Origin: Candidatus Omnitrophica bacterium UBA6253
GTDB taxonomy: Bacteria; Omnitrophota; Gorgyraeia; Gygaellales; Profunditerraquicolaceae
Direction of reading: 5' to 3'
Assembly (NCBI GenBank): GCA_002441245.1
Contig: DJVP01000005.1
Location: 66,303 to 130,302 of the forward strand
Length of the DNA stretch: 64,000 nt
Part shown: in pieces, positions 14,749-40,376 of the stretch
Layout: each line of letters begins with the position of its first letter
Position numbering within the stretch: position 1 is the first letter of the stretch
The notes under the pieces: model-generated
The model's input: only the letters and a program-made list of their open reading frames with translations
What the model was told of the DNA's origin: nothing
Databases searched by the model: none
Position numbers and translations under genes: made by a program

Positions 14749-14768
14749 TTCCGGGAGAGGCCTATTTT

Positions 14769-17819: not shown

Positions 17820-17841
17820 ACCCCGGATTCAGGAGACAGGG

Positions 17842-20727: not shown

Positions 20728-20728
20728 A

Positions 20729-21103: not shown

Positions 21104-21110
21104 AAGGAGT

Positions 21111-21500: not shown

Positions 21501-21529
21501 TAAGACCGAGATTAAAAAGGAGGCGAAAA

Positions 21530-21922
21530 ATGTCAAATAAGAAAATATTAATTGTTGACGATGAAGTGGATTTTACCAGGTTATTAAAATCCAATCTCGA
21601 GGAAACCGGAAAATTTGAAGTATTGGCCTTGCCTAATGCGAACGACATCATATCTCAAGTCCATGCTTTTAAGCCGGATATTATTTTACTCGATATTATT
21701 ATGCCCGGGACAAAGGGGATTGAAGTTTGCGAGATGCTTAATAAAGATGTAGTCGGCAAGGCCATACCCATTATCATTATTTCTGCCTTGGCTAAAGACG
21801 CAGACAAATATAAGGCTTATAGGGTTGGAGTAGTAGACTATATGGAAAAACCAATTGAAATAGAACGCTTAATCGTAAAAATAGATAAGTATATCCAATT
21901 TAAACAAGGCGCAGAAAGCTAA
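21530..21922 (+). CDS. Single-domain response regulator (receiver only).
   Basis: KILIVDDE and DIILLDIIMPGTKG. No output domain. Confidence 0.85.
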   Translation: MSNKKILIVDDEVDFTRLLKSNLEETGKFEVLALPNANDIISQVHAFKPDIILLDIIMPGTKGIEVCEMLNKDVVGKAIPIIIISALAKDADKYKAYRVGVVDYMEKPIEIERLIVKIDKYIQFKQGAES

Positions 21923-23135: not shown

Positions 23136-23144
23136 AATACAGAT

Positions 23145-24029: not shown

Positions 24030-25228
24030 AGAAGAATTCGAAGATTATTTTAACTTTAATTATTCTGTTTATAATAGCTGGACTATTTTTTATAAGGAAT
24101 ACGGGGAGTTTTGTAAATAAAAACCAGGAATCGGCCTGGACGGATAAAATGCAATTGGAATATGCTAATACTTTACTTGCTAAAGGGCTGAATGCCGACG
24201 CAGCGCAGGCATTTGAGGCCTATATAGAAGGAGGTCATGCGGATAAAAATGATTTGGCAGGTATATGTTATAAGCTGGGTAATATTTATCTGGATTTAAA
24301 AGAATATGAAAAGGCTCTGGCTAATTTCTATAAAAGTGAATTACTTAATCCTGACTCTGAATACAGGCAGGATATGAATCAAAAGATAGTCAGCACATTA
24401 GAAAACCTGGGCTTGAGCCAGCAGGCGCAATATGAATTAGAGAGCCGTACATCTATTAAGCCAACTGTTCAAAAGAATGAAAAGATTGCCGTCAGGATCG
24501 GCAAAAGAGAGATTACAAACGATGAGATTGATATGGTAATTAACCGGCTCCCTGAGCAGGCAAGGAAGGGATTAGGCAGCAATGATGCAAAATTAAGATT
24601 TGTCCGGGAGTACGTGGCCACGGAGGTGCTTTATGAAAAAGGCAAGAAACTTGGGTTGGATAAAGATGTAAATATCCGTTCAGCAGTAGAGGATTTTAAG
24701 AAACAGCTTGTCTTGCAGGAACTGCTGCGCGATGAAATAAAAAAAGAATTAAAGATTACTCCTGAAGATATCTTGTTGTATTATAGGGCCAATAAAGATA
24801 AATACAGCATCCCTGAAAGGTCCAGGGTATCGTTTCTTGAGCTTAATAATCCGGTTAAAAGTGATGAAACAGCCGTTAATCTCAAACAGGGTAAAGGTAA
24901 AAGAATAGAACAGTGGATTGGAAAGGGCTCTGATTTTTTGCCGGGGATAGGAGAATCAAAAGAGGCGGTGGAAGCTATTCTTAAAAAAGAGAAGGGGGAG
25001 GTTGTTGATCCGGTTAAGATTAAAGATAAGGTGTATATGTTTATTATTAATGAGAAAGAGTCCAGGAGGCAAGAATCATTTGAAGAGGTAAAGGACCGGG
25101 TTGAAAAAGAATACCGCTCACAGAAAGAGCAGCAGATCGTGCAATCCTTTCTGGATAAAGCCTTGGAGCAGCAGGAGATTGAGATTTTATACCAACCGAA
25201 AACAGAAGATGAGAAAGCTGTAAAATGA
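24026..25228 (+). CDS. Membrane-anchored protein with TPR-like and SurA/PpiD-like chaperone regions.
   Basis: N-terminal TM helix IILTLIILFIIAGLFFI, TPR-like helices, then a SurA-N-like segment (KIAVRIGKREITNDEIDMVINRLPEQAR...). It overlaps DUF58 by 4 nt. Confidence 0.5.
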   Translation: MKKNSKIILTLIILFIIAGLFFIRNTGSFVNKNQESAWTDKMQLEYANTLLAKGLNADAAQAFEAYIEGGHADKNDLAGICYKLGNIYLDLKEYEKALANFYKSELLNPDSEYRQDMNQKIVSTLENLGLSQQAQYELESRTSIKPTVQKNEKIAVRIGKREITNDEIDMVINRLPEQARKGLGSNDAKLRFVREYVATEVLYEKGKKLGLDKDVNIRSAVEDFKKQLVLQELLRDEIKKELKITPEDILLYYRANKDKYSIPERSRVSFLELNNPVKSDETAVNLKQGKGKRIEQWIGKGSDFLPGIGESKEAVEAILKKEKGEVVDPVKIKDKVYMFIINEKESRRQESFEEVKDRVEKEYRSQKEQQIVQSFLDKALEQQEIEILYQPKTEDEKAVK

Positions 25229-26172
25229 AATTATTAAGCAAAATACTGTTTTTAGGATTAAGTATTTCTTTCGTAGCCGTAACATTAACCGGTTGCGCCA
25301 AAGGGAAAAAGGAGCCGGGCGTACCGATTATAGTTAAGGCAACAGTAGATAAGACAACAGCAGCAATTGGAGATAAAATAAAATATACGATCTTTATTGA
25401 AAAGGATAAGGATATTGAGATTGAACCTTCTTTTTTTGGCAAGAATTTAGGCAATTTTGCAGTTAAAGATTTTGGTTCAAAGAAAAGCGAATCTTTAAAT
25501 AAAGATAAGATATTCCAATGGTATATATTGGATACATATATTACCGGAAAAACTACCATACCTAAAGCTACGATTAAATATAAAAGAAAAAAAGATAATG
25601 ATTGGAGCCAGGTTGAGACTGGCCAACTTTCTGTGGAGGTAAAAAGCTCCCTGGATAAGGGCGGGCCCAATGTTCAGATGCGGGATATAAAAGATCCGGT
25701 AGGTCTGCATTCGGCAATAAGTAAATACTTTATTTTTGCAGGTGTTTTGTTTTTGATTGCTTTAGGCTTATCCGGCGCTTATTTCATGAAGAGGAATAAA
25801 GAAGGATTGGTTGTTCCTAAGAAGCCTGCTCATGAAATAGCTTATGAGCAACTCGAGCGGTTAGGTGCAAAAGACTATATCGGCCAGGGCTTGATTAAGG
25901 AATATTATACGGAGATTTCAGATATTATCAGGCATTATCTTGAGAATAGATTTGAGCTTAGGGCTCCGGAGATGACCACGGAAGAATTTTTGGTTAGCGC
26001 CAGGGACGCTGCGAAATTAATCAGTGAACATAAGAATTTACTTAAAGAGTTTTTGCTCTGTTGCGATTTGGTGAAATTTGCCAAGTACGCGCCTCCTACG
26101 GATGAGACAAACTCTATTTTTAATTCAGCAAAGAATTTCATAGACCAGACAAAAGAAAATGAGCCTGCATGA
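25225..26172 (+). CDS. Lipoprotein / single-pass membrane protein, BatD-like (DUF4381-type) hypothetical.
   Basis: Lipobox LTGCAKG. A beta-rich N-terminal domain similar to the N-terminus of 29035..30906. TM helix YFIFAGVLFLIALGLSGAYFM, then a cytoplasmic tail. Confidence 0.5.
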   Translation: MKLLSKILFLGLSISFVAVTLTGCAKGKKEPGVPIIVKATVDKTTAAIGDKIKYTIFIEKDKDIEIEPSFFGKNLGNFAVKDFGSKKSESLNKDKIFQWYILDTYITGKTTIPKATIKYKRKKDNDWSQVETGQLSVEVKSSLDKGGPNVQMRDIKDPVGLHSAISKYFIFAGVLFLIALGLSGAYFMKRNKEGLVVPKKPAHEIAYEQLERLGAKDYIGQGLIKEYYTEISDIIRHYLENRFELRAPEMTTEEFLVSARDAAKLISEHKNLLKEFLLCCDLVKFAKYAPPTDETNSIFNSAKNFIDQTKENEPA

Positions 26173-27157
26173 TCCGCTTGCTTTAATCTTTATTCCCATA
26201 ATAATACTGCTTTTTTTATACAAGCAGAAAAAACAGAGGTCTGCATCTGCCTTTAAGTTTTCCTCTGGAGAATTGATTGGGAAATTAAAGGGTTCTTTTA
26301 AGCTTAAACTGAGCAAGAACCTGATTTATCTGAGGTTTTTAGCAATTGCGTTGTTAATATTTGCCTTGGCCCGTCCGCAAACTCCGATAGCTGATTCTAA
26401 AATACATTCAGAAGGTATTGATATCGTCTTAGCGATTGATTGTTCAACCAGTATGCTTGCCGAAGATTTTAGGTTAGGAGGCCAAAGGCAAAACAGGATT
26501 GAGGTTGTAAAAAGTGTGGTTAAGGATTTTATCATGGGCAGAAAAAATGACCGTATTGCTATTGTTGCTTTTGCTTCCCGGGCATATACGGTTTGTCCGT
26601 TAACTCTTGATTATGGTTGGTTGCTGGATAATCTGGAAAGGGTTAAAACAGGCCTGGTCGAGGATGGCACAGCAATAGGTTCTGGTATAGCCACTTCTTT
26701 AAACCGGCTCAAAGATGCCAAGGCAAAAAGCAAGGTGGTTATTTTGCTCACTGATGGACGCAATAATACAGGAAAGATTTCACCTTTAACTGCCGCAGAA
26801 GCAGCTAAGGCTTTAAAGATTAAGGTGTATACGATTGGCGCAGGTTCAAAAGGGCCGGTGCCTTATCCGGTAAAGGATTTCTTCGGTAATACTGTATACC
26901 AGCCGGTACAGATAGATATTGATGAGGATACTCTGATCAAGATTGCGGAGATGACAGGGGCAAAATATTTTCGAGCTACGGATACAGAAAGCCTGCGTAA
27001 AATATATAAAGAGATAGATAGCCTTGAGAAGACCGATATAGAGGAAAGCGGGTACCTGGAATATAATGAATTATTTAACGTATTCTTAATCCTGGCTCTT
27101 GTGTTCTTGCTTTCGGACATTGTTTTATCTAATACTGTTTTAAGGAAAATACCATGA
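26159..27157 (+). CDS. BatA-like membrane protein with a von Willebrand factor A domain.
   Basis: N-terminal TM helix and MIDAS motif DIVLAIDCSTSM followed by VILLTDGRNN. C-terminal TM helix present. Confidence 0.8.
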   Translation: MSLHDPLALIFIPIIILLFLYKQKKQRSASAFKFSSGELIGKLKGSFKLKLSKNLIYLRFLAIALLIFALARPQTPIADSKIHSEGIDIVLAIDCSTSMLAEDFRLGGQRQNRIEVVKSVVKDFIMGRKNDRIAIVAFASRAYTVCPLTLDYGWLLDNLERVKTGLVEDGTAIGSGIATSLNRLKDAKAKSKVVILLTDGRNNTGKISPLTAAEAAKALKIKVYTIGAGSKGPVPYPVKDFFGNTVYQPVQIDIDEDTLIKIAEMTGAKYFRATDTESLRKIYKEIDSLEKTDIEESGYLEYNELFNVFLILALVFLLSDIVLSNTVLRKIP

Positions 27158-28167
27158 GATTTGCGGCAGGAAACTTTGTTTTCGGGTTTATTATCGTTTT
27201 GGCCTTGGCGCTATTTTATCTATGGGCAGCTAAATTACGAAAGAGCGCCTTAGAGAAATTCGCCCAAAAAGAGTTGTTGGGTGAATTATTATCGCGCTTT
27301 GATTATAAGAAAAGATTTATGAAAATAATACTGATAGTTTTGGCAATAACACTTATGCTTTTTGCTTTGATGCGGCCACAATGGGGTTTTCATTGGGAAG
27401 AGGTAAGAAGAAAAGGAGTAGATATTCTGATAGCCCTGGATACTTCAAAAAGTATGCTTGCGGAGGATGTAAAGCCCAGCAGGTTAGAGCGCTCAAAGTT
27501 AGCAATTAAAGATTTGGTGCGTAATCTTAAAGGGGATAGAATCGGCTTGATTGCTTTCTCCGGAAGCGCATTTTTACAATGTCCTTTAACGCTGGATTAT
27601 GGAGGATTTCTGCTTTCGCTGGATAATACAGGCATAGACACTATCCCTAAGGGCGGCACTTCTATAACCAGCGCGATAAAAGAGGCCTTAAGGAGCTATG
27701 AAGGCGGCCAGAAGAGATATAAGGTCCTCGTCATTATTACTGACGGAGAAGACCATGAAGGCGACCCTGAACAGGCAGCTGAAGAGGCTAAAAAGGAAGG
27801 AATTAAGATATTTTGTATCGGGATAGGCACTAAGGAAGGAGACCTTATACCTGTTACGGATGAAAACGGGCAGAGATTATTCGTTAAAGATAACCAGGGT
27901 AATGTGGTTAAGTCGCATCTTGATGAGGCTAGCCTCCAGAAGATTGCTTTGAATACCGGCGGCGTATATGTGAGAGCTACTAATGCCGAGTTTGGCCTGG
28001 ATTTGATTTATCGGGAAAAAATAGCCAGGATGGAAAAGAGGGAACTTGAAGCTAAAATGAACAAGCATTATGAAGAAAGGTTCCAGATATTTCTAGGACT
28101 AGCTTTATCTTTGTTTATAATTGAGCATTTTATAAGTGAAAAGAAGACATCCAGGAGCATCTCTTAG
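27154..28167 (+). CDS. BatB-like membrane protein with a von Willebrand factor A domain.
   Basis: MIDAS motif DILIALDTSKSM followed by VLVIITDGEDH. N- and C-terminal TM helices. Confidence 0.8.
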   Translation: MRFAAGNFVFGFIIVLALALFYLWAAKLRKSALEKFAQKELLGELLSRFDYKKRFMKIILIVLAITLMLFALMRPQWGFHWEEVRRKGVDILIALDTSKSMLAEDVKPSRLERSKLAIKDLVRNLKGDRIGLIAFSGSAFLQCPLTLDYGGFLLSLDNTGIDTIPKGGTSITSAIKEALRSYEGGQKRYKVLVIITDGEDHEGDPEQAAEEAKKEGIKIFCIGIGTKEGDLIPVTDENGQRLFVKDNQGNVVKSHLDEASLQKIALNTGGVYVRATNAEFGLDLIYREKIARMEKRELEAKMNKHYEERFQIFLGLALSLFIIEHFISEKKTSRSIS

Positions 28168-29041
28168 TATGAGAAGATATATATTCATTATATCACAGGT
28201 TTTATTTATTTTATCCGGGTTTTATCTATATTCATTCGCAGAAGATAGCGCTGGCCTGGTGAATAAGGCAAACAGTTTATACAGACAAAAGCGATACGAT
28301 GAGGCGATCAAATTATATAATGAGGCGCAAATTAAATCACCTGATTCCAAGGAGATTAACTATAATATAGGTATAGCCCAGTATAAAAAAGGTGATTATA
28401 ATACGGCAATCAACTTACTTGAAAAGGCAACTGTATCTAAAGATAAGATTTTAGAGTCTAAGGCAAACTACAATATTGCCAATGCAAAATATAAGCTTGG
28501 CAAGTTAAAGGAGAATACCGATCTTAAGGAAACCGTAAATTTATTGCGGCAGTCCTTGGATTATTATAAAAGGGCAATAGAGTTGAATTCTAAGGATGAG
28601 GATGCGAAAATAAACCATGAACTGGTGGAAAAAGAGTTAAAAATGCTTCTGGATAAGTTAAAACAAGAACAGGATAAGAAAAAGGAGCAGTCTGAGCATA
28701 AAAATGAGACAAAAGAAGGCCAGGGGCAGTCTCAGGAAGGGCAACAGGAAAATAAACAGGGTGGGCAGGGGGAGAAGCAACAGGCAGCTCAAGCTGAGGA
28801 GCAAAAAATAGATGAGCAAAGTAAAGAAGAGACCAGGTTGGCCCGGGAAGCTAAAGATTCCGAAGAGGGGAAAGAAAAGCAAGAGGGAGAATCAAAAAGG
28901 CAGGCCTCGGAAGAAGCAAAAGAAATGTCTGAGAAAGAAGCAAATATGCTCTTGGAAGGATATAGGCAAGAAGAAAATTCCTCCGGGAAGCTGGAGGACC
29001 GGAAAAGAGGGCCTCTTGGAGATGTATTAAAGGATTGGTAA
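28136..29041 (+). CDS. BatC-like TPR protein with a K/E/Q-rich low-complexity tail.
   Basis: TPR helices (YRQKRYDEAIKLYNEA..., YKKGDYNTAINLLEKA...) and a low-complexity region EQDKKKEQSEHKNETKEGQGQSQEGQQENKQGGQGEKQQAAQAEEQK. The real start is probably the MRRYIF Met at 28169. Confidence 0.65.
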   Translation: MKRRHPGASLSMRRYIFIISQVLFILSGFYLYSFAEDSAGLVNKANSLYRQKRYDEAIKLYNEAQIKSPDSKEINYNIGIAQYKKGDYNTAINLLEKATVSKDKILESKANYNIANAKYKLGKLKENTDLKETVNLLRQSLDYYKRAIELNSKDEDAKINHELVEKELKMLLDKLKQEQDKKKEQSEHKNETKEGQGQSQEGQQENKQGGQGEKQQAAQAEEQKIDEQSKEETRLAREAKDSEEGKEKQEGESKRQASEEAKEMSEKEANMLLEGYRQEENSSGKLEDRKRGPLGDVLKDW

Positions 29042-30906
29042 TTGATAAGATTATGAATATTATAACCAGGATTCTTAAATTCTTGATACTAAGCGCAAGC
29101 CTTCTGTTTTATGCTTTAAGCCTTCCTCCTGCCTGTTTGGCCAAAGATATTAGTTTTGAGGCGACGGTAGACAGGAACAAGGTATCTTTGGGGGATTCTT
29201 TGCAACTAGCTTTAAGTTTTAACAATGCGCAAGATATGCCCGCACCGGATCTACCATCCATGGACGGATTTAAAATTCGTTATTTAGGCCCTTCCACAAT
29301 GATGTCTTTTGTTAATGGAAAAGTCTCAGGCTCTATAACGCATAATTATGTGCTTTTACCTACGAAAATAGGAAATTTTAAGATAGGGCCTTTTAAATTT
29401 GAACGCAATGGCGATAAATATGCCTCTAATCAGTTGAATGTGGAAGTATTAAAGGGGCAGGTGCAAGGTTCTGTTGACCGGTCCGGCAGCCAGCCGGAAT
29501 CAGCACCGGAGTTAGGAGATTTAAGTAGCAGGTTGTTTGTAACAATTCAGGCTAAAAAAGATAAAGCTTATTTGAATGAAACCGTACCTTTAACCATAAA
29601 ATTATATGTAAACAGATTGAGTATAAGGGATATACAATATCCGGAGTTTAACCATGAAGGTTTTTCGGCAGCTGCATTTGATAAGCCCAGCCAGTATCAG
29701 GAGGTGCGTAACGGGGTAAACTTTGATGTCATAGAATTTAATACCTCTATTTTTGGTTTAAGGCCGAATGAGTTCAAGCTCGGGCCAGCGCATATTAAAT
29801 GTAATTTGATTATGCGTAAGCAGACGAACCGCAGGTCTACTTTTACATCCAACAGTTCTTTTGATGCGGATATATTTGATAATTTCTTCGGCAGATATGA
29901 GACTTACCCCTTGGATTTAAAATCCGGGGATATTGAATTTACTGTGTTGGCCTTGCCGCAAGAAAATAAACCCGTGGATTTCTCCGGCGCCCTGGGTAAT
30001 TTTAATCTGGATATAACAGCTGCGCCCTTAGAGGTGAAACTGGGTGATCCGGTTACCCTTAAGATGATTGTCAGTGGGGAAGGAAATTTTAACACTGTTG
30101 GGGTCCCCAAGCTTAAATCAGAGAAGGGTTTTAAGGTTTACGAGCCTCAGATAAAGCAGGAAACCAATCAAAAGATATTTGAACAGATAGTCATGCCGAT
30201 GAGTTTGGAAGTTAAAGAAATTCCTCCGTTATCTTTTGATTTTTTTGATATTGGTTCCGGAGAGTACAAAACTATCACCCGCGGCCCGTTTCCCCTGATA
30301 ATAGTTAAGCCTGAGAAGGAAGAAGAATCTAAAATAGTCGAGAATAAACAGCCTGCCCTTGCTATTTCCGCCAAGGAGGAGAAGCTGGGAAGGGATATTA
30401 TCTATATTAAGGATAGCCCCGGTATTTTGAAGAAGAAAAACGATTATCTTTATAAGAATAAAATATTCCTGATGTTCCAGGTCCTCTTGCTGTTGTTCTA
30501 TTTGATTGCGGCTATAATTTATGCAAAGAAACAAAGATTAAAAACAGATTTAAAATACGCCAGGGGACTTTTAGCTCCCCGTAAAGCCAAGGCGGGTTTG
30601 CGCCAGGCAAAGAAATATCTAGATAAAGCAGACGCGCAAAAATTCTACGATATTTTATTCATGACTATGCAGGAATACCTGGGGGATAAATTTCATTTGT
30701 CCTCAAAAGGGATTACTATAAGTATTATAGATGAGTATTTACGTAAAAATGGTGTAGCTGAAGATGTTTTAACAAGACTAAGAGATCTCTTCCGGGAATG
30801 CGATATAGTAAGGTATGCGTCTTCGCAGTTAACCAGGGAAGATATGCGCGCTTCTTTAATTAAATTAGAAGAAGCGATAGATTATTTGCAGAGGAAGAAG
30901 GCATGA
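29035..30906 (+). CDS. BatD-like large membrane protein.
   Basis: Signal/TM N-terminus, repeated beta domains, and a C-terminal TM helix IFLMFQVLLLLFYLIAAIIYA with a cytoplasmic tail. Position and size of 623 aa fit BatD. Confidence 0.6.
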   Translation: MVIDKIMNIITRILKFLILSASLLFYALSLPPACLAKDISFEATVDRNKVSLGDSLQLALSFNNAQDMPAPDLPSMDGFKIRYLGPSTMMSFVNGKVSGSITHNYVLLPTKIGNFKIGPFKFERNGDKYASNQLNVEVLKGQVQGSVDRSGSQPESAPELGDLSSRLFVTIQAKKDKAYLNETVPLTIKLYVNRLSIRDIQYPEFNHEGFSAAAFDKPSQYQEVRNGVNFDVIEFNTSIFGLRPNEFKLGPAHIKCNLIMRKQTNRRSTFTSNSSFDADIFDNFFGRYETYPLDLKSGDIEFTVLALPQENKPVDFSGALGNFNLDITAAPLEVKLGDPVTLKMIVSGEGNFNTVGVPKLKSEKGFKVYEPQIKQETNQKIFEQIVMPMSLEVKEIPPLSFDFFDIGSGEYKTITRGPFPLIIVKPEKEEESKIVENKQPALAISAKEEKLGRDIIYIKDSPGILKKKNDYLYKNKIFLMFQVLLLLFYLIAAIIYAKKQRLKTDLKYARGLLAPRKAKAGLRQAKKYLDKADAQKFYDILFMTMQEYLGDKFHLSSKGITISIIDEYLRKNGVAEDVLTRLRDLFRECDIVRYASSQLTREDMRASLIKLEEAIDYLQRKKA

Positions 30907-31685
30907 AAAAAATAGTTTTGGCTATTCTGTTGATATTTTTTGTGTTGGGTTTTATCTTAACCTTTTACCTACGCAACTCTTTGGCTCAAGAAGCAGTAAA
31001 TACGCCAGGCGCTGTCTTTTATCAAGCAAATATTTATTATCAGGAAGGTAAATATGACGAAGCTATCAAGGATTATGAAAGGCTTATTGGCCGAGGATTA
31101 GAAAGCGGTAATCTTTATTATAATTTAGGCAATAGTTATTTTAAGAAAGGCGAACTTGGATTGGCTGTTTTAAATTATGAGAAAGCAAAGGGTTTTATCC
31201 CCAATGATGGCGATCTGAAATCTAATTATAGCTATGTCCTGCAGGTATTAAACTTAGAACCCGAGCTTTTTGGAAATTGGTTTGATAAAATGGTTTATGT
31301 TTTGTTCCAGGGGACAACAATCGATTCTTTAACAATTCTATTGTCTTTTATCTATGTTGTTTTAATAGTATTTCTTATTTTAAGCTTATTTTTTAACAGG
31401 TTGAAACGATTTTCCGGGTTAGTTGTTTGCATCCTTGCAGCGTTATTCATATTATCAGCTTACGCGCTGAATAGGAAAATTAATTATTTGAATAAAACCG
31501 CGGTTGTTATAAGTAACGAGGCAGATGTCAAGTTTGAGCCATTAGAAAACGCCACGACATACTTTAAACTTAGCAAAGGCAGCAGGGTTGAGGTAGTGGA
31601 GAAGGTAGAAGGTTGGTATAAAGTGCGGCGTTTTGATAACAAACTTGGCTGGGCAATTAGAACTGCTTTTGCAAAACTAAATTAA
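30903..31685 (+). CDS. BatE-like protein: TPR repeats, TM helix and a C-terminal SH3b domain.
   Basis: TPR helices (YQEGKYDEAIKDYERLI, YNLGNSYFKKGELGLAVLNYEKA) and an SH3-like C-terminus (VVISNEADVKFEPLENATTYFKLSKGSRVEVVEKVEGWYKVRRFDNKLGWA). Confidence 0.6.
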   Translation: MKKIVLAILLIFFVLGFILTFYLRNSLAQEAVNTPGAVFYQANIYYQEGKYDEAIKDYERLIGRGLESGNLYYNLGNSYFKKGELGLAVLNYEKAKGFIPNDGDLKSNYSYVLQVLNLEPELFGNWFDKMVYVLFQGTTIDSLTILLSFIYVVLIVFLILSLFFNRLKRFSGLVVCILAALFILSAYALNRKINYLNKTAVVISNEADVKFEPLENATTYFKLSKGSRVEVVEKVEGWYKVRRFDNKLGWAIRTAFAKLN

Positions 31686-31834
31686 ATAAGGGGCGTTCCC
31701 GTTTTTTCTTACCTTAATTCTTAAAAAACAGGCGCGCCATTATTTTTACTATAGCAAAATTAAGCATTGGCATGGTTAGGCCTTAAAAGTAAAAGCGCGA
31801 AATATTCTTGCCTAAGTGTATCCCGATTCTTCTT

Positions 31835-31925
31835 GACAAATGCGGAAAATATGCTATACATATAGTATATTCAGTACTTTTAGTAACTGCTAAAACTAAT
31901 GAGTTGCCCTCACAACTAAAGCGCC
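31835..31925 (+). promoter_or_regulatory. Promoter (TTGACA...TATACA) and conserved 5'UTR of the MerR-like gene. The same ATATGCTATACAT...AGTACTTnTAGTAAyT block is duplicated upstream of the paralog at 37306.
   Basis: TTGACAAATGCGGAAAATATGCTATACAT followed by AGTACTTTTAGTAACT. Compare 37222-37290: GATATGCTATACATGCAGTATGTTTAGTACTTATAGTAATTACT. Confidence 0.45.
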
Positions 31926-32153
31926 ATGGAAAAGAAAACCATATCCGCGCAGGAAATAGTCTCTAAATTCAATACGCCATATCAAACAGTAAATTATTAT
32001 ACTGCCATAGGATTGCTGCCGGTTGCCGGAAAGATAGGCAATAAGCGCATGTATGAAGAAGCGGTAATAAAGGAGCGGCTGCAGAAGATTTCGGAGCTGG
32101 CGAGGGAAGGATATCCTCTTAATTTGATTCGCAAGAAACTGTTAGGAATGTAA
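31926..32153 (+). CDS. Short MerR-family HTH DNA-binding protein (DNA-binding domain only).
   Basis: ISAQEIVSKFNTPYQTVNYYTAIGLLPVAGKIGNKRMYEE matches the MerR N-terminal HTH signature (...tlRyYe..GLl.p.r...g.R.Y.e). At 75 aa it has no effector domain. Confidence 0.65.
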   Translation: MEKKTISAQEIVSKFNTPYQTVNYYTAIGLLPVAGKIGNKRMYEEAVIKERLQKISELAREGYPLNLIRKKLLGM

Positions 32154-33699: not shown

Positions 33700-35361
33700 A
33701 TGAAGAGAATAATTATTGGAATTTCAATCCTGTTTTTTATAGGCCTGAGTTTTAGATTGATAGATGCACAGACTGCTCCTGAAGAAAAACAGTTTTCTGA
33801 GGAAAGGCAGGCATCCTCAGAAGCCTTGGATAAAAAATCCACCAAACAAAAAGGACAGGATGCTGCAACAGAAGATACTGCTAACCAAGAGGCTGTGGAG
33901 GATGCTAACGATCCTTTCTCCGGGTTATCCAGGAAAATATCCCTTGATTTGCGCAGTATGGATATTATGGATACGGTTAAGTTCTTATCTAAGCAGGGGG
34001 ATTTAAATATCGTCGCCACTAAAAATGTGAACGGAAAGGTAACTGTATTCTTAAAAGATGTGACTATAGCGGATGTCCTGGATATGATCCTGCTTACCAA
34101 TAACCTTGCCTGCGAGAAAAAGGCCGGGATAATTACTCTGATGACGGAAAATGAATATGAAGCGCTTTATGGCGAGAAATACACAAATAAAAAACAAACC
34201 AAGACTATAACTCTTAAATATGCCGATCCTAAAAGGGTAGGTACTATATTGGGAAGCCTTAAGAGTTCAGTGGGCAAGGTGATTATAGATGAGGCTACGG
34301 GGATGATTATTTTGATTGATACCCCGGATAAGATAAAGGAGATGGAGGATGCTGCAGCAAGGGCCGATCTGTCTACCGTTAACCGGGTATTGCCTACGGT
34401 TAGGGAAACATTTGAGTTAGAGTATGCCAAGATAGGCGAGGTCAAAGGGGAAATAACTAAGGCCTTGACCAAAGATATCGGGACTATTGAAGTGGACGAA
34501 AGGACTAACAAGCTTGTAGTTACGGATCTGCCTCATAACATGGAGAGGATTAGGGCGCTGGTTGCAGATTTTGATTCCAAGACAAGGGAGGTGCTTATCG
34601 AAGCGAAGATCATCGAGATAACCTTAAGTGATGATTTTGCTATGGGTGTGGATTGGCAAAAGGTTTATGGTTTGGCCGAGGATTCCCTGACTTTTACCGG
34701 CTCTTTTCCATTTAGCGCCCCGACTTCCACCGCTTCCACTATGAAACTTAGTGTGGGCACATTAGCCAATAATAAATATAGTGTTGCCTTAACGCTTATA
34801 AAAAGTTTCGGTAAGTTGAAAGTAGTTTCTTCGCCGCATATCGTTGTCTGTAATAACGAAGAGGCAAAATTCATGGTTGGTACGCGCGAGGCGTATATAA
34901 CTACTACTATTACTACCGGAGATGTAACCACCACTACTTCCGAAAGTGTCCAATTTATAGACGTGGGGGTAACCCTGTATGTTACGCCGACGATTAATAA
35001 GGGCGGTTTTGTCAAGATGCATATAAAGCCTGAAGTCAGCTCAATATCAGAATGGCTGGAGACTACGGAAGGGAATAAGATCCCAATAGTAGATACCTCG
35101 AATGTTGAGACAGATGTTTTAGTCAAGGACGGCAACACAATTATTTTGGCCGGGCTGATAAAAACGACAACAGATAAAAATGTATCCAGGATGCCTTTAT
35201 TAGGCAGCCTGCCGGTTTTAGGAAAATTGTTCAGTAATGTTTCGGATTTAAATGCGAAAAAGGAGCTGGCTATCTTTTTGACCCCGCATGTCATTTCTGG
35301 AACAAATGAGATGACTAGATTAAAAGACGAGATGAAGACAAGAAAGCCTCCCAAGAGATGA
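33700..35361 (+). CDS. Secretin (GspD/PilQ/MshL family outer-membrane channel).
   Basis: Signal peptide, N0/N1-type domains (DIMDTVKFLSKQGDLNIVATKNVNGKVTVFLKDVTIADVLDMIL), and a secretin C-domain (VLIEAKIIEITLSDDFAMGVDW...VSSPHIVVCNNEEAKFMVG...ILAGLIKTTTDKNVSRMPLLGSLPVLGKLFS...LAIFLTPHVI). Confidence 0.85.
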   Translation: MKRIIIGISILFFIGLSFRLIDAQTAPEEKQFSEERQASSEALDKKSTKQKGQDAATEDTANQEAVEDANDPFSGLSRKISLDLRSMDIMDTVKFLSKQGDLNIVATKNVNGKVTVFLKDVTIADVLDMILLTNNLACEKKAGIITLMTENEYEALYGEKYTNKKQTKTITLKYADPKRVGTILGSLKSSVGKVIIDEATGMIILIDTPDKIKEMEDAAARADLSTVNRVLPTVRETFELEYAKIGEVKGEITKALTKDIGTIEVDERTNKLVVTDLPHNMERIRALVADFDSKTREVLIEAKIIEITLSDDFAMGVDWQKVYGLAEDSLTFTGSFPFSAPTSTASTMKLSVGTLANNKYSVALTLIKSFGKLKVVSSPHIVVCNNEEAKFMVGTREAYITTTITTGDVTTTTSESVQFIDVGVTLYVTPTINKGGFVKMHIKPEVSSISEWLETTEGNKIPIVDTSNVETDVLVKDGNTIILAGLIKTTTDKNVSRMPLLGSLPVLGKLFSNVSDLNAKKELAIFLTPHVISGTNEMTRLKDEMKTRKPPKR

Positions 35362-36590
35362 ATAAACGGCTTATATTAATTATCGCTTCAGGTATAGTAT
35401 TGGCATCGCTCCTTATTGCTTTAGGCCTGACCATATTCGCGGTATCCAAGAAAAAAGCGGAGATAAATGAATTGAACAATGACCTTAAAAATAAGGACGC
35501 AAAATTGAGCCAGATGGAAAAGCAAATGGAATCATTGAATGCGGAGAAAAGTTCTCTGGCAGGCGTAAAATTAAGCTTAGAAGGAAAATTGATAAAATTG
35601 GAGCAGGATATTGATAGCGCAAAAGAAAAAGAAATTAACCTGAGTAAAAAGCTCAGCCTTTTTGCGGGAGAAAAGAAAAAACTTGAAGATAGCTTAGCGC
35701 AGACTACCCAGTTGATGCAGGATAAGCTCCGGATTTCAGAGCAGGAAAGCAGGAAGGAGCTGTTGCGTAAAAGCAAGCAGTATCTTGCTAAAAAGAAAGA
35801 ATTTACCAGCCAGATAGTGGATTTAAATAAAAAACTTAATAACTTAAACGAAGAAAAAGATACGCTGGAGAAAAATGCGGTTAATGCCGCAGAAGTAACT
35901 GCCAGGTTGATGAAGGAAAAAGAAAAGCTTGACCATTACAAGCTCGGGTTATCATATGAAAATAAACAGGATTATGAAGCAGCCGTAAAAGAATACGAGG
36001 CAATCCTGGAGATTGACCCTCAGGATGCGAATATCTATCTTCGCCTGGCCAGTATTTATATCTACAGCATAAAGGATCCTGAGAGGGCGGACTTTTACGC
36101 CAAGGGCTATGCTGTTTTGAACAGCAGGAAAGGAGTCAATACTCAACAGTCCCCCGGGGGTTCTTTGGCCGGCACCATGGTTAATGAGAAAATAGCTATT
36201 ACCAAAAAATTAAATGAGGCAGAACAGAAGCTAATCCAGAAAGATAAACAAAGGCATACTCAACCTGGGGATTTAAGCGAGGTATTTGGTACCTACAGGG
36301 AAAAAGCGCTCAAGCGGCATTATAATTTGGCGATAATATACGAAAATGCAGGAAGGTATAAGGAGGCGGCCGATGAGTACGAAAAGACATTGGAGCTGGC
36401 TCCTGATGATGCGGATATCCACTATAACTTAGCCATTGTTTATGATGACCATTTGCAAAATAATGAAAAGGCTATATTACATTACCGCAGGTATCTTGAG
36501 TTGTCTCCTGATGCTAAAGATGCTAACGTAGTGGCAGAATGGATGTTTGAAGCCAGGGAAGATTTAGAGTGGCAGAGGAAAATGAGGTAG
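35358..36590 (+). CDS. Membrane-anchored coiled-coil + TPR protein (MshN-like).
   Basis: N-terminal TM helix, about 170 aa of coiled coil, then TPR motifs (YENKQDYEAAVKEYEAILEIDPQDANIY..., YENAGRYKEAADEYEKTLELAPDDADIHYNLAIVY). Confidence 0.6.
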   Translation: MNKRLILIIASGIVLASLLIALGLTIFAVSKKKAEINELNNDLKNKDAKLSQMEKQMESLNAEKSSLAGVKLSLEGKLIKLEQDIDSAKEKEINLSKKLSLFAGEKKKLEDSLAQTTQLMQDKLRISEQESRKELLRKSKQYLAKKKEFTSQIVDLNKKLNNLNEEKDTLEKNAVNAAEVTARLMKEKEKLDHYKLGLSYENKQDYEAAVKEYEAILEIDPQDANIYLRLASIYIYSIKDPERADFYAKGYAVLNSRKGVNTQQSPGGSLAGTMVNEKIAITKKLNEAEQKLIQKDKQRHTQPGDLSEVFGTYREKALKRHYNLAIIYENAGRYKEAADEYEKTLELAPDDADIHYNLAIVYDDHLQNNEKAILHYRRYLELSPDAKDANVVAEWMFEAREDLEWQRKMR

Positions 36591-36593
36591 GGA

Positions 36594-36944
36594 GTGCAAA
36601 GGAAGGTTATCTTGGCTGTCAAATTATTTTTACTTATATTTTGCGGCATAGGTGGTTATCTTTTAATTTCTAATTTGATGCTCAAGGAATCACTTAAGAA
36701 GATAACTAAGGCGGTAACAATTGTAAAAAACAAAGACCCCCAGAAGCATAAGAAATTAGAAGAAGACATAAGAAGAAAAATGGAGGAAAAATACCGGGCA
36801 GATATGATTTCTTATAAAGTCGTGATGAAGAGACTAAAACAGGAGCAAGACAGGCAGAAGAATTCATCTGGAAAGGTAAATACTTTGAATAAAAAGGATA
36901 AAGCAGGAGCCGTAAAAAAGGAGGCTATAGATGGACCTCGGTAA
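36594..36944 (+). CDS. Small single-pass membrane coiled-coil protein with a GTG start. It has a paralog in the C-terminus of 37794..38786.
   Basis: TM helix LFLLIFCGIGGYLLISNL. The motif KMEEKYRADMISYKVVMKRLKQEQDRQK matches LEEKYRADMVSYKATAMRLQEIEKKDREK at 38680-38770. Confidence 0.5.
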   Translation: MQRKVILAVKLFLLIFCGIGGYLLISNLMLKESLKKITKAVTIVKNKDPQKHKKLEEDIRRKMEEKYRADMISYKVVMKRLKQEQDRQKNSSGKVNTLNKKDKAGAVKKEAIDGPR

Positions 36945-37206
36945 TAAAGTAGTTGTAAAGCAGAAGATAATTATAATTTTCGGAATTTTACTGGCTTTGG
37001 GTTTTATCAGTATTGCAATAAGGGGAAAACATGTAAAGATGCTGATTGAAAAGGTAGATCAGCAGGCCCTGATAATCAAGGAAAAGGATAAACAGCTTGA
37101 GACAGATAAGATTCAGTATACTAGTTTAGCGGCAAGGCTGCATAAGGAGGTTAAAAGGGTCGGTGAGTTAGAGGAGGAGTTAAAAAAATATAAGCGGGGC
37201 AGATGA
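36931..37206 (+). CDS. Small single-pass membrane coiled-coil protein.
   Basis: TM helix IIIIFGILLALGFISIAI followed by a charged coiled coil. It overlaps the upstream gene by 14 nt. Confidence 0.45.
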   Translation: MDLGNKVVVKQKIIIIFGILLALGFISIAIRGKHVKMLIEKVDQQALIIKEKDKQLETDKIQYTSLAARLHKEVKRVGELEEELKKYKRGR

Positions 37207-37305
37207 ATTCTTTAGAATTGAAGATATGCTATACATGCAGTATGTTTAGTACTTATAGTAATTACTAGAATAACTAAGTTATTTTTATTTGTGCAGGTAA
37301 ACGCC

Positions 37306-37533
37306 ATGGAAAAGAAAGTAATATCCGCGCAGGAAATAGTCTCTAAATTCAATACGCCTTATTATACGGTGAATTATTATACCGCTATTGGCCTGCTGCC
37401 AGTTAGCGCCAAGGTGGGCAATAAACGTATGTATGAGGAGAGTATGGTAAAGGAACGCTTACAGAAGATTTCTGAATTATCCAGGGAAGGATATCCCCTG
37501 AATTTGATACAAAAAAAGCTTTCCGGCGCCTAA
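37306..37533 (+). CDS. Short MerR-family HTH protein, a paralog of 31926..32153 with about 84% aa identity.
   Basis: MEKKVISAQEIVSKFNTPYYTVNYYTAIGLLPVSAKVGNKRMYEE... The track start at 37291 (MQVNAMEKK) is probably an upstream extension. ATG 37306 aligns with the paralog start, and its upstream sequence GCCATGGAAAAGAAA matches. Confidence 0.65.
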   Translation: MEKKVISAQEIVSKFNTPYYTVNYYTAIGLLPVSAKVGNKRMYEESMVKERLQKISELSREGYPLNLIQKKLSGA

Positions 37534-37565
37534 AAAACAGGTAAAGTACCACGTACTATTAAAAT

Positions 37566-37739
37566 TTGACAAATAAATATAATATGTTATACTTTTATTG
37601 TGACAGGAACAAAAAGATCCGAAAAGGTAAACTCATAGTAATATGGGGGCGCAAAGCCAAGGGTCCTGAGGTTAAGGATAGCCAGGTTGCCGAAGATTAG
37701 GATTTACCCCGGTTGGTGAGTTTACCGGGGTTTTTTTTT
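37566..37739 (+). ncRNA. Candidate small RNA or cis-regulatory leader of about 140 nt. It has its own sigma70 promoter (TTGACA-16-TATACT) and an intrinsic terminator (CCCCGGT...ACCGGGG + T9).
   Basis: Promoter at 37566-37593, predicted TSS near 37600. Terminator stem at 37707-37713 / 37724-37730, T-run at 37731-37739. GGTAAACTCA (37625-37634) is complementary to TGAGTTTACC (37717-37726), which overlaps the terminator 3' arm and gives a possible antiterminator. Not assignable to a known RNA family by eye. Confidence 0.45.
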
Positions 37740-37793
37740 GAAGAAAAATAAAAGTACCACGTACTTTGTGAGAAAAAAGAGGTTAAAAGCAAA

Positions 37794-38786
37794 ATGCCAA
37801 GGCTGCCGAGGATAAATTTAGAAGGTGCGCTGTATTATATAACTACTAAGGCAGATTATAAACTTAATCTTTTTAGGGATGATAGCGATAAAAGTCGCTA
37901 TCTTTTTTTTATCTTTGAATATAAGGGGCTATATAATTTTAAATTGTATTCTTTTGCCCTGACCTCTAATGAAAGCCACCTGCTTATAGAGCCTTCCCAG
38001 CAGTTTACTGTTTCCCAGATTATGCATGATGTGAATGCCAATTATACAAAATACTATAATAAAAAATATGAAAAGAAAGGCCATCTTTTTGAGGAAAGAT
38101 TCAAGGCAGTCTTGATTGAAAAACAGGGGTATTTGCTTGAGATGACCCGTTTTGTGCACCGCATTGTTTTAAAAGACAATCCACCGTTGCAGTTAAAGGA
38201 TTATAAATGGAGCAGTTATTTGTCTTACCTAAAAACTGAACAGGATAAAAATATTAGCGCCAATGTTGATTGCGAAGAAGCCTTAAATTTATCCTCTTTG
38301 CCTTTGGAAGGCAGGCATGCAAAGTACCAGGAGTTTGTGGAAAAGGCCAGCCTGACTGACCTGGAGGCTTTTGAAAATAAAATGTACAGGGCCTCTGTTG
38401 TAGGAAGCGAAAAGTTTGTGGAAAGGATAAGGGAGATTTTAAAAGCCGCCGCGGAGGCAGGGCAGGAACAGCCGGATGGGAACGCGGAGTTGTTCCTGGA
38501 AAAAAAGAAAAGAAGCCTCATGGTTTATATTTTAGTTGTTTTTATATTGGCATCCTTAGGGGCAGGCAGTTTTCTTCTTTCGGGTAACGCAAATCTAAAA
38601 CGCGAAATTAAAGAGGCCGCTTTGGAAAAAGATGAGATTTTTGCAAAAGATATTATCGCCACAAAGAAAGAGATCAGCAGGGAGCTAGAGGAAAAATACC
38701 GCGCGGATATGGTTTCTTATAAGGCTACTGCGATGCGGCTTCAGGAGATAGAGAAGAAAGACAGGGAAAAAAGGGAGAAACTATGA
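37794..38786 (+). CDS. Fusion protein: an N-terminal IS200/RAYT-like (Y1 HUH) domain with a degenerate HUH motif, a TM helix, and a C-terminal coiled-coil segment paralogous to 36594..36944.
   Basis: NESHLLIEP aligns to the IS200 HxH box (hIHmLlEiP) but reads Ser-His, not His-x-His. The RAYT-like distal region is HLFEERFKAVLIEKQGYLLEMTRFVHRIVLKDNPPLQLKDYKWSSY. TM helix MVYILVVFILASLGAGSFLL. Shared motif EEKYRADMVSYK. Confidence 0.6.
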   Translation: MPRLPRINLEGALYYITTKADYKLNLFRDDSDKSRYLFFIFEYKGLYNFKLYSFALTSNESHLLIEPSQQFTVSQIMHDVNANYTKYYNKKYEKKGHLFEERFKAVLIEKQGYLLEMTRFVHRIVLKDNPPLQLKDYKWSSYLSYLKTEQDKNISANVDCEEALNLSSLPLEGRHAKYQEFVEKASLTDLEAFENKMYRASVVGSEKFVERIREILKAAAEAGQEQPDGNAELFLEKKKRSLMVYILVVFILASLGAGSFLLSGNANLKREIKEAALEKDEIFAKDIIATKKEISRELEEKYRADMVSYKATAMRLQEIEKKDREKREKL

Positions 38787-39205
38787 CCTGTGATATGGAT
38801 AAAAGAGGCATGGGGATATTATTCATCTGCGCCTGTTTTATTTTATGCCTGGATTTAGTTTTTGCCAAGAATGAGGTTTATGATGTTCCTGATCCTAGCA
38901 AGTTGGTGTTAGAAGCCCAGAAGATGGTATCAGTTGGAGAGTTGGCAGCTTATGAGCAGTTACCCGTAGAGGAAAGCTCAAGAGATGGCTATTGGTGGAA
39001 TAAACAAGATAGAGATGAGAAACTGGAATATGTCAAGGGGCTTATTGCAGGGTTTAAGCTGACTGACAAAAAACTTTCAGCAAAGAAAGTAGTTAGGGTT
39101 CTTGACAGGGAGTATAACCCCAGGGATAACCCCCTGGATATTAAGATGGATAAGAGCGTAGAAAGGATGTTTAACATTGTCATTAAGGAGATGATGTTAA
39201 AATGA
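38783..39205 (+). CDS. Hypothetical secreted protein.
   Basis: Signal peptide MGILFICACFILCLDLVFA. Overlaps the upstream gene by 4 nt. Confidence 0.45.
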   Translation: MTCDMDKRGMGILFICACFILCLDLVFAKNEVYDVPDPSKLVLEAQKMVSVGELAAYEQLPVEESSRDGYWWNKQDRDEKLEYVKGLIAGFKLTDKKLSAKKVVRVLDREYNPRDNPLDIKMDKSVERMFNIVIKEMMLK

Positions 39206-39720
39206 AAGCAGCCATATTGATTTTAACGGTTTATGCTGCATTTTTATTGGCGTTTCCAACCAATACTTATTGTGAGGACAGTCCGTCTTCGGGTGTAATT
39301 ATAATTGGTTCTTCCGAGGCCAGTTCATCTGAAAATCAAGGTTCCGAGAATCTTTCTTCCGGTAGCGAAGACTCTTCTAAGCCGGCGGCAGATGAACCAG
39401 CTGCCGCTCTTCTTTATGAGATTAGCGGCAGCAAAATAGGAAGTACCAGAGTTTCGCAGGAGGTCACCCTTCCATCAGCCGGGGAGGTTATGTTTGTAGA
39501 TGCCGGGATAACAGGAGCTTGTACCATTGTCCGGGTTGATAAAAACGGAAAAGAAACGCAGGTGTTAAACATGATCCCGGATCGGGCGATTGGGCAAAGG
39601 CTGCCTAAGGGTACTTATAAAGTGTACCCTGAGGATTTAGATGGCAGTTTTCCGCTTGATAAACTGACGGCAAAAGTACAGGTTAAACTGATTGAAGGTA
39701 CAACAGGAGGCGCGCAATGA
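39202..39720 (+). CDS. Hypothetical secreted protein with a Ser-rich linker.
   Basis: Signal peptide MKAAILILTVYAAFLLAFPTNTYC, then a Ser-rich low-complexity segment (SSEASSSENQGSENLSSGSEDSSKP) and a beta-rich C-terminal domain. Overlaps upstream by 4 nt. Confidence 0.45.
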   Translation: MKAAILILTVYAAFLLAFPTNTYCEDSPSSGVIIIGSSEASSSENQGSENLSSGSEDSSKPAADEPAAALLYEISGSKIGSTRVSQEVTLPSAGEVMFVDAGITGACTIVRVDKNGKETQVLNMIPDRAIGQRLPKGTYKVYPEDLDGSFPLDKLTAKVQVKLIEGTTGGAQ

Positions 39721-40376
39721 GGAAGATATTAATATGCGTAGTCTCATTATTGATGCTGTTTCTAAATGCAGGCGTTATTTATGCAGGCGCCTTTTTATCT
39801 CCGGAGAAGACAAAAGGGGCCCTCAGGGAAGAGATTCCCAATGAGGGTTATGAAAATGATTCAGCGGATAAAAAAAAGGCTTTTGAAAATTTTAAGGCTA
39901 CAAGAAAACTGTTATATGAAAAAATGATTAAGCGCACCGGCGACTGCAGGGATGAGTTGGATAATATGTTTCTTATGGTAAACAACCTTTTTAAAAAGGC
40001 TCGCGAGGAAAAAGATATTAAAAAAGAAAAAGAGCTGGTTACGGTGATGAGCGATTATAACAGCGTGCTTGGTGACTTGGGGCTTATGCAGGTAGTTTTA
40101 GACCTGGGGAAATTCGCTGAAGGCGATAAGTTTATAGAATATTATGTGGTTATGGAAAACGGTTTTGAGCGGTTGAAGGGAAACTTCAGCTTAAAAAATG
40201 AAATATTCTTGGGCAGGATAGATGCTTTAACGAATCAGGATGCCTTGCGTTATGAGAAAAAGCTCTTAAGGATCTATAGGGATTATTTTGAGTATGATCC
40301 AAAGATTGACAGGATGGTTGAGATAGAAGATGCGCCTAAGCAGGAAAAAGGCAAGCTTAATAAAAGGGGAGGATAA
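39717..40376 (+). CDS. Hypothetical secreted alpha-helical protein.
   Basis: Signal peptide MRKILICVVSLLMLFLNAGVIYAGA. Overlaps upstream by 4 nt. Confidence 0.45.
   Translation: MRKILICVVSLLMLFLNAGVIYAGAFLSPEKTKGALREEIPNEGYENDSADKKKAFENFKATRKLLYEKMIKRTGDCRDELDNMFLMVNNLFKKAREEKDIKKEKELVTVMSDYNSVLGDLGLMQVVLDLGKFAEGDKFIEYYVVMENGFERLKGNFSLKNEIFLGRIDALTNQDALRYEKKLLRIYRDYFEYDPKIDRMVEIEDAPKQEKGKLNKRGG

Follow-up and report, generated by a model that had tools for sequence, protein, structure and literature searches.

Between a gene for a small MerR-like protein and one for a 330-residue membrane protein with a transposase-like HUH fold, the 64,000-nt stretch of Candidatus Omnitrophica bacterium UBA6253 analyzed here (hereafter the window, in whose numbering coordinates are given) carries a compact region (37543–37793) with a promoter, an intrinsic terminator and two copies of a 15-mer. 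The locus raises the question of what this arrangement does: whether it produces a free-standing RNA of about 140 nt or controls the gene that starts at 37794, and whether the repeated 15-mers are protein-binding sites or the footprint of an insertion. A first-pass annotation of the same DNA had proposed a promoter-to-terminator RNA element, bracketed by the 15-mers, with riboswitch-like logic. The best explanation, which we hold with considerable confidence, is the leader of an operon with a class-I riboswitch for c-di-GMP (cyclic diguanosine monophosphate) acting as a terminating OFF platform, together with a separate and older layer of palindromic boxes.

The promoter, the aptamer and the operon

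A sigma-70-type promoter (TTGACA-16-TATACT, + strand) is present at 37566–37593 and is near-consensus, as the first-pass annotation had it, with 11 of 12 matches and an extended −10 TG at 37585–37586. It is the best promoter-like site in the 3-kb region scanned (36500–39500), and both the hexamers and the TGnTATACT sequence are conserved across clades. From its position, transcription is expected to start near 37600.

Downstream of the promoter, at 37616–37694 (+ strand), we identified a c-di-GMP-I (GEMM-I) aptamer. The Rfam model RF01051 matches over its full length (model positions 1–87) and scores 59.9 bits (gathering score 35; E 3e-9 in a 64-kb search), and this is the sole Rfam family found in the whole window. 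The earlier, tentative link to this class by way of a GCAAAGC segment is thereby borne out. P2 is formed by 37627–37628/37651–37652 and 37632–37637/37642–37647 and closed by a GUAA tetraloop (37638–37641), and P3 by 37655–37667/37675–37688 (both + strand). When positions are mapped onto the numbering of the Vibrio cholerae aptamer Vc2, which was done through the Rfam consensus and is to that extent indirect, the ligand-contacting residues would correspond to G37626 (G20), A37653 (A47) and C37690 (C92). G20 and C92 contact the two guanines of c-di-GMP, while the backbone of A47 contacts a ribose 2′-hydroxyl (PMC5888326). The window thus shares with Vc2, itself covered by RF01051, the full-length match, a P2 with GNRA tetraloop, a bulged P3, the three contact residues and the location in a 5′ untranslated region (UTR); it differs in that P2 is A/U-rich and a U17–G40 pair replaces C–G.

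Covariation supports the structure of the aptamer. Among 57 distinct homologous aptamers the equivalents of G20, A47 and C92 are kept in 56, 57 and 57 sequences, respectively, 98.1% of the alignment cells are standard-paired and 13 of 19 pairs have changed on both sides; slid controls reach 32–43% pairing with two to five such pairs. Fitting of the alignment to the model favors the structure, but the margin is large. The leader RNA is an ordinary class-I c-di-GMP riboswitch, which any Rfam-based annotation would find.

The riboswitch heads an operon that comprises the gene for the HUH protein, three small open reading frames (ORFs) and a giant surface-protein gene. The first regulated gene (37794–38786, + strand) encodes the RAYT/IS200-like HUH-fold membrane protein of 330 residues (Pfam Y1_Tnp). 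It is followed by the three small ORFs (38783–40376, + strand; 140, 172 and 219 residues), which are joined by 4-nt overlaps, have no assigned family and have orthologues in identical order in relatives. The giant ORF (40379 to past 64000, + strand) begins with GTG at 40379, only 3 nt past the preceding stop codon and behind a ribosome-binding site (RBS) GGGGAGG, so that spacing between the operon genes in the window is either a 4-nt overlap or this 3-nt gap. It encodes at least 7,874 residues with its stop beyond the window, and is missing from the ORF list because it never reaches a stop codon there. The N-terminus of its product is signal-peptide-like, and the domains Kelch, DUF2341, Laminin_G_3, PA14, LVIVD and CBM_5_12 are found along it.

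The association of the aptamer with this operon is maintained across Omnitrophota. Used as a query, the 330-residue protein retrieves metagenome-assembled genomes of the phylum at 66–89% identity, and in all seven related genomes with upstream DNA the aptamer precedes the gene, with the same gene order. With the models of the Rfam clan, six of these seven match RF01051, and the seventh (L003) falls under the GGC-variant model RF03167, whose threshold it just passes at 59.5 bits. A metagenome scan with an alignment of the protein family added 80 loci with identities between 99% and 32%. Eight genome copies were used for a covariance model, which found the aptamer in 70 loci, down to approximately 33% protein identity, in every case on the strand of the gene and 66–330 nt upstream of an MPRxPR-type start; most of the loci without a match simply have no upstream sequence. 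In most clades for which the sequence reaches far enough, homologues of the N-terminus of the giant ORF are found downstream of the riboswitch, and in distant clades a giant-like ORF directly follows the 330-residue gene. In locus L084 (1447–2445, 4594–4814), the riboswitch and two boxes stand directly before a giant-like ORF and the HUH gene lies 2 kb upstream, so that the riboswitch goes with the giant gene and not with the HUH gene. Taken with the downstream homologues, this indicates that the conserved regulated unit is the giant-gene operon. Four homologues of the HUH protein from outside Omnitrophota (L009–L012) have neither an aptamer nor a comparable box upstream. Of the individual loci, L068 (4700–5000) has both boxes and the promoter with a short leader that contains no riboswitch and gives no Rfam match, and L080 (1–360) has boxes, promoter and terminator around a leader without an Rfam family at gathering score, which may be a degenerate or divergent aptamer.

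A ligand other than c-di-GMP is very unlikely. The candidates are the ligand of the GGC variant and 3′3′-cyclic GMP-AMP (3′3′-cGAMP), the ligand of GEMM-Ib. The first is favored by the score of the window under RF03167 (57.5 bits, near the gathering score of 59) and by the assignment of L003; against it, the window nevertheless falls below that gathering score, lies far above threshold with the canonical RF01051 model, and carries GCAAAGC where the GGC variant has GCGAA, with A after GC in all 57 sequences. GEMM-Ib aptamers reportedly have A at position 20 instead of G, and the equivalent position is G, not A, in 56 of 57.

Terminator, antiterminator and the predicted direction of the switch

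The strong intrinsic terminator that had been predicted to end at 37739 is indeed present (37706–37739, + strand). It consists of an 8-bp stem, in which ACCCCGGU (37706–37713) is paired with ACCGGGGU (37724–37731), a 10-nt loop and a U9 tract (37731–37739), and the hairpin alone has a predicted energy of −14.4 kcal/mol. A simple terminator scan missed it, as that scan permits loops of at most 8 nt. The terminator is a universal companion of the aptamer: a hairpin with a T-run of at least six follows on the 3′ side in 59 of 60 distinct elements with a locatable T-run, L054 being left unscored with the script anchored on an earlier T-run. Its 5′ arm starts 8–12 nt beyond the end of the aptamer.

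An aptamer segment of the form GG(U/C)AAAC(UCA) is complementary to the terminator loop and 3′ arm. In the window the 5′ strand of this antiterminator (GGUAAACUCA, 37626–37635, + strand) shares bases with the 5′ strand of P2 and includes the G20 equivalent, and its 3′ strand (UGAGUUUACC, 37717–37726, + strand) occupies part of the terminator loop and its 3′ arm. Both strands had been pointed out at first pass; TGAGTTTACC lies at 37717–37726 as given then, but GGTAAACTCA belongs at 37626–37635, one base to the right of its earlier placement. The unliganded minimum-energy fold (−42.3 kcal/mol) includes the ten contiguous pairs; if the terminator is retained, the best fold has −41.9 kcal/mol, which makes the two states nearly isoenergetic. 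Over 45 diverse sequences, 82.7% of the antiterminator cells are paired, compared to 8–49% in slid controls, and one pair (18/147) is C–G in 23 sequences and U–A in 19. This covariation lends the helix moderate support. The proposal that a terminator/antiterminator choice governs read-through into 37794 is therefore supported by the unliganded fold and by one pair that covaries across clades.

As the aptamer and the 5′ arm of the terminator do not overlap, the ligand would act only through the antiterminator. At low c-di-GMP, 37626–37635 would pair with 37717–37726 and thereby remove the 3′ arm of the terminator, and RNA polymerase would read on into the genes for the RAYT-like protein, the three small proteins and the giant surface protein. 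Upon binding of c-di-GMP, the aptamer would hold the 37626–37635 segment in P2 and the binding pocket; the terminator (37706–37739) would then form and an RNA of approximately 140 nt would be released. High c-di-GMP probably switches the giant-gene operon OFF, judged from these alternative folds. An ON switch has the same very low probability as a different ligand, since a terminator that does not overlap the aptamer offers no structural basis for it.

The terminated product also bears on the possibility that the element is a small RNA gene in its own right, with an RNA acting in trans or as a c-di-GMP sponge. A discrete product of approximately 140 nt is predicted, and promoter and terminator are both strong. 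Still, we give this a slim chance only, as the element directly precedes a member of the same gene family, in the same orientation, in 70 loci, no separate promoter-like site occurs between the terminator and 37794, and the antiterminator helix is conserved. The promoter-to-terminator element of the first-pass annotation is thus real, but as a cis-acting leader and not as a free-standing RNA gene.

A second terminator-like element lies within the 330-residue gene, approximately 90 nt from its start (37881–37910, + strand), and consists of a 9-bp hairpin (GATAGCGAT/GTCGCTATC) followed by T8. Hairpin and T-run are kept in the seven closest genomes (the window and L001–L006) and lost in distant clades. 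The element may provide another attenuation point, or it may be incidental to the codons for DDSDKSRYLFFIF.

The palindromic boxes

The 15-mer AAAGTACCACGTACT occurs, as had been noted, at 37543–37557 and 37751–37765, and these are its only exact copies in the window. Each copy contains the near-palindrome AGTACCACGTACT (upstream box, 37545–37557; downstream box, 37753–37765; neither assigned to a strand). The upstream box is centered approximately 50 bp before the predicted transcription start and ends 8 bp before the −35 hexamer, and the downstream box starts 14 nt past the U-tract and ends 28 nt before the ATG. Within one window such a repeat is unremarkable: three matches with at most three mismatches were found where 1.1 are expected, and 11 of 100 shuffles equaled this number. 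Among relatives, the 12-mer AGTACCACGTAC is invariant at both sites in eight of eight genomes while its immediate flanks vary, and the intergenic region as a whole is 87–91% identical, compared to 52–75% at third codon positions of the adjacent gene. Over the 70 loci, the degenerate form TRCCW[C/G]GYA of the 13-bp near-palindromic core (consensus AGTRCCASGYACT) has a 40–65-fold higher density at the two positions than in the rest of the 556 kb, where its frequency is close to chance. Conservation and positional enrichment together show that the repeat is not due to chance.

In distant clades, related 13-bp near-palindromes (AGTGCCACGTACT, AGTGCCAGGCACT or ATGCCACGCAT) stand at the same two positions. 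An equivalent of the upstream box is found in most clades and a downstream box before the RBS in nearly all, and several distant clades have a second downstream box exactly 32 nt further on, where it overlaps the codons for xPR(I/T). The copy downstream is inverted in L046 and L048, and in L058 an insertion parts the terminator from the downstream box, which still adjoins the RBS. As L068 has the order box–promoter–box–gene without a riboswitch, the boxes belong to the promoter/gene unit and predate the riboswitch or are independent of it; they are not part of the riboswitch, which corrects the first-pass annotation, where they bracket the RNA element. The location of the upstream box outside the transcript and the flips in orientation make a double-stranded DNA site the most economical reading. 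From this pattern of conservation, the boxes are probably the operator of a dimeric protein, a separate and older control layer that flanks the promoter and abuts the RBS phylum-wide.

Of the other explanations, recombination would link the boxes to the adjacent protein: the HUH protein or another recombinase would use them as recombination or processing sites, excising or inverting the promoter-riboswitch cassette and rendering the giant gene phase-variable. The boxes do bracket the promoter in nearly all clades, directly repeated in the window and in inverted orientation in L046/L048. Hairpin-recognizing HUH transposases share their fold with the adjacent protein, whose distant homologues keep HUH and Tyr, and the combination of a c-di-GMP riboswitch with an invertible element has a precedent (PMC5386303). 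Nevertheless, we consider recombination unlikely, since the repeats in the window are direct, all 70 cassettes are in gene orientation and no inverted or excised locus was found, although this sample consists of assembled contigs rather than reads, from which rare variants would escape. Moreover, the boxes are invariant in the clade of the window even though its protein has ESH for HUH and Phe for the Tyr; several clades have no upstream box, and the boxes measure only 13 bp.

Equally improbable is that the downstream box or boxes act at the RNA level, as a 5′ UTR hairpin (AAAGUAC-CAC-GUACUUU) for protein binding, translation or stability of the read-through transcript. The constant location between terminator and RBS, the overlap of the second box of distant clades, at 32 nt, with the first codons, and the joint change of positions 2 and 12 (AGTGC..GCACT versus AATGC..GCATT) would all suit such a hairpin. 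Against it, the upstream box lies outside the transcript; A–C mismatches at positions 4/10 are common (AGTACCACGCA, AATACCACGCAT), the inversion in L046/L048 weakens the hairpin on the + strand, and the stems have only 4–5 bp with 3-nt loops. As to a target-site duplication left by insertion of the promoter-riboswitch cassette, identical direct repeats around a compact module of approximately 200 bp are what one would look for, but hardly any credence can be given to it when boxes occur at both positions phylum-wide with copies that differ in sequence or orientation in many clades, when L068 has both boxes without a riboswitch, when extra boxes lie at +32 nt, and when the core is under purifying selection. 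Of the two roles first suggested for the 15-mers, the comparative data hence favor protein-binding sites and reject an insertion footprint.

Further arrangements were seen around the downstream box. In some clades (L063, 4810–5000; L054; L074; L050, 100–170), the box in the form ATGCCACGCAT, which reads Met-Pro-Arg-Ile, opens a short upstream ORF of approximately 60 codons or a truncated duplicate of the N-terminus of the gene, and in L062 and L053 it coincides with the real start codon; CCACG is common to the box and the conserved MPRxPR N-terminus. In another clade (L051, 500–760; L069, 4700–4860; L072, 50–225), the stretch from the terminator to the gene is taken up by tandem repeats of the GGTTACAGGTTTCAGG type, behind which an inverted array (CTTGCAACTTGTAGC...) surrounds a GC-rich hairpin, and a downstream box is absent. 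A sigma-54 promoter was considered for the variant AGTGCCTGGCACT and rejected by eye, as it has TGGCAC but the GC follows 9 nt on and not 11.

Several points weigh against the reading of the locus as an OFF riboswitch with a separate operator layer. The ligand, the transcription start and the direction of the switch are all computational, and an OFF response is opposite to the common pattern, in which c-di-GMP promotes adhesins. Only a few independent evolutionary events underlie the covarying antiterminator pair, whose position 147 is under a further constraint from the terminator stem; outside the GG(Y)AA core the helix is clade-specific, with only 5–6 bp in some clades. None of the window ORFs scanned contains a GGDEF, EAL, HD-GYP or PilZ domain, and no gene for a diguanylate cyclase or phosphodiesterase was found among them. 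As for the boxes, several clades lack the upstream one, and the symmetric changes would suit a hairpin no less than a dimer site. Looping of the DNA with helical phasing was rejected: the distance between the boxes is 208–212 bp (approximately 20 turns) in the close clade and 208–352 bp at clade level, with no consistent phase.

The RAYT-like protein, genomic setting and known systems

The best candidate for binding the boxes, by association only, is the co-transcribed protein with the RAYT fold. The N-terminal 140–150 residues of the 330-residue protein match Pfam Y1_Tnp (E 4e-9), while its score with NCBIfam REP_Tyr_transpos (32.6) is under the cut-off of 80. In a Foldseek search, its AlphaFold model (predicted local distance difference test score 80.5) matched best to 4ER8, a REP-associated tyrosine transposase with its repetitive extragenic palindrome (REP) hairpin (template-modeling score 0.72), and the next matches of the HUH domain were the transposase-hairpin complexes of IS608 and ISDra2; a sequence search of the HUH-transmembrane family against the PDB returned no match. 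In the alignment, the clade of the window has NESHLLI and TRFVH, with ESH in place of HUH and Phe in place of the catalytic Tyr. HUH and Tyr are both kept in distant Omnitrophota homologues (NHLHLLI, AYIHLNP), and some intermediates keep the Tyr, so that the catalytic residues decay progressively within the family. With both motifs degenerate, only binding, and not catalysis, could be an activity that the window clade has retained.

The protein further has one transmembrane helix and a C-terminal coiled coil with a EEKYRADMVSYK motif. This C-terminal part (38484–38786) is 40% identical (E 9e-14) to p116 (36594–36944), including the motif EEKYRADM(I/V)SYK. The small membrane protein p116 closes the secretion-system operon upstream. 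By this similarity, the 330-residue protein can be described as an HUH domain fused to a p116-like module. Searches with NCBIfam and Pfam gave nothing significant for p116, p91 and the three small ORFs of the giant-gene operon.

RAYT proteins recognize short palindromes beside their own gene (PMC2817692). The locus resembles a REP/RAYT unit in the RAYT-like fold and in the short palindromic repeats that adjoin the gene. It differs in that both boxes are upstream, direct, 13 bp long and without a GT(A/G)G head, whereas REPs flank the gene in inverted orientation (PMC2817692); the gene that follows overlaps the stop codon of the 330-residue gene. The boxes are not repeated elsewhere in the 64 kb or in the 556 kb of related loci, and the protein is membrane-anchored and, in this clade, without the HUH motif and the Tyr. 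The locus thus has the HUH fold of REP/RAYT systems, and neither an intact HUH/Tyr pair nor inverted, multicopy flanking REPs.

A transposase-derived, membrane-tethered regulator is an attractive idea that draws on this association and on the modeled fold. Its full form, in which giant-protein operons throughout the phylum would be under a two-layer switch of an OFF riboswitch and a domesticated membrane RAYT/IS200-type HUH protein that still recognizes its ancestral palindromic ends, by now placed around the promoter and the RBS, appears doubtful to us.

The MerR-like neighbor was examined as the other possible binder. The protein encoded at 37306–37533 (+ strand; 75 residues; Pfam MerR_1, E 1e-7) has a winged helix-turn-helix (HTH) and is 85% identical to that of another gene of the same length at 31926–32153 (+ strand); both consist of the HTH only, and the match to MerR (4ua1) is confined to its N-terminal HTH. 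As a general binder of the boxes it was rejected: only in the clade with protein identity of at least 65% does the gene lie next to them, and within 5 kb it is missing from clades in which the boxes are kept. The upstream regions of the two genes (31816–31925 and 37196–37305) are a duplicated promoter region with three tandem TATAGTA-type repeats approximately 10 bp apart, which may be the operators of the paralogues themselves. Close-clade adjacency and different repeats of its own make this gene an unlikely general partner of the boxes. MerR-type activation involves an operator within an overlong spacer of 19–20 bp and a protein with a dimerization helix and an effector domain. Here a 16-bp spacer separates the hexamers, neither box falls within the promoter, and the protein corresponds to the HTH part only. 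The paralogue at 37306–37533 seems to have been inserted in the close clade alone, and is probably not part of the switch.

The large genes of the window are all on the + strand. A MoxR/Bat operon (22143–31685, + strand) precedes the first MerR-like gene, which is followed by a gene set similar to type II secretion and type IV pilus systems (+ strand), with an ATPase, a secretin (33700–35361) and a TPR protein, and by genes for two small membrane proteins. The layout is that of the type II secretion-like locus described for Omnitrophota giant genes (West-Roberts et al., bioRxiv 10.1101/2023.11.21.568195), and the window likewise has genes for a Rotamase_2 protein, a secretin, a TPR protein and an ATPase upstream of its giant ORF. 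On the 5′ side of the MoxR/Bat operon (14736–21922, + strand) lie genes for a CHASE4/multi-PAS protein of 1,027 residues, in which no output domain was recognized at E ≤ 1e-5, for a dCache/HAMP histidine kinase and for three single-domain response regulators in succession.

A close parallel in mechanism is Cd1 of Clostridioides difficile, a c-di-GMP-I riboswitch upstream of the flgB operon for which premature termination of transcription caused by c-di-GMP, with a 160-nt RNA, has been shown experimentally (PMC5386303). The two have in common a class-I aptamer with an intrinsic terminator, a short RNA of approximately 140–160 nt, a very long operon and a second cis-element in the regulatory region. 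In Cd1 this second element is a 154-bp invertible segment with 21-bp inverted repeats, located downstream of the riboswitch and flipped by RecV (PMC5386303), whereas the window has 13-bp near-palindromic boxes on both sides of the promoter-riboswitch module and inversion was seen in 0 of 70 loci.

Giant genes, from 20 kb to above 100 kb in size, are characteristic of Omnitrophota, and a role in attaching to and digesting prey or host cells is ascribed to them. Conserved PilZ genes adjoin them (West-Roberts et al., bioRxiv 10.1101/2023.11.21.568195), which is a pointer to c-di-GMP signaling. The same study mentions no riboswitch, c-di-GMP, promoter, transposase-like or MerR gene between the secretion locus and the giant gene. 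Riboswitches and c-di-GMP are likewise unmentioned, and regulation of the giant genes is undiscussed, in that study, in a 2026 preprint on complete Omnitrophota genomes and in a 2023 Nature Microbiology survey. The riboswitch at the head of the giant-gene operon, its predicted OFF response and the phylum-wide box with its RAYT-like neighbor are hence undescribed in these papers.

Although ordinary for riboswitch biology, the finding is a useful handle for giant-gene biology. In organisms still beyond genetic manipulation, a conserved riboswitch is a concrete regulatory input open to testing, and whether it is ON or OFF can be read from metatranscriptomes as the ratio between the approximately 140-nt leader and read-through. 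A second control layer may be approached through the box and through the RAYT-like membrane protein with its degenerate catalytic residues; if the two-layer reading were true, a transposase would have turned into a membrane-tethered transcription factor, and transcription of the giant cargo could be coupled, by way of the p116-like module, to the state of the secretion apparatus. If the OFF response is true, deployment of the giant protein would accompany low c-di-GMP, the opposite of the usual adhesin pattern.

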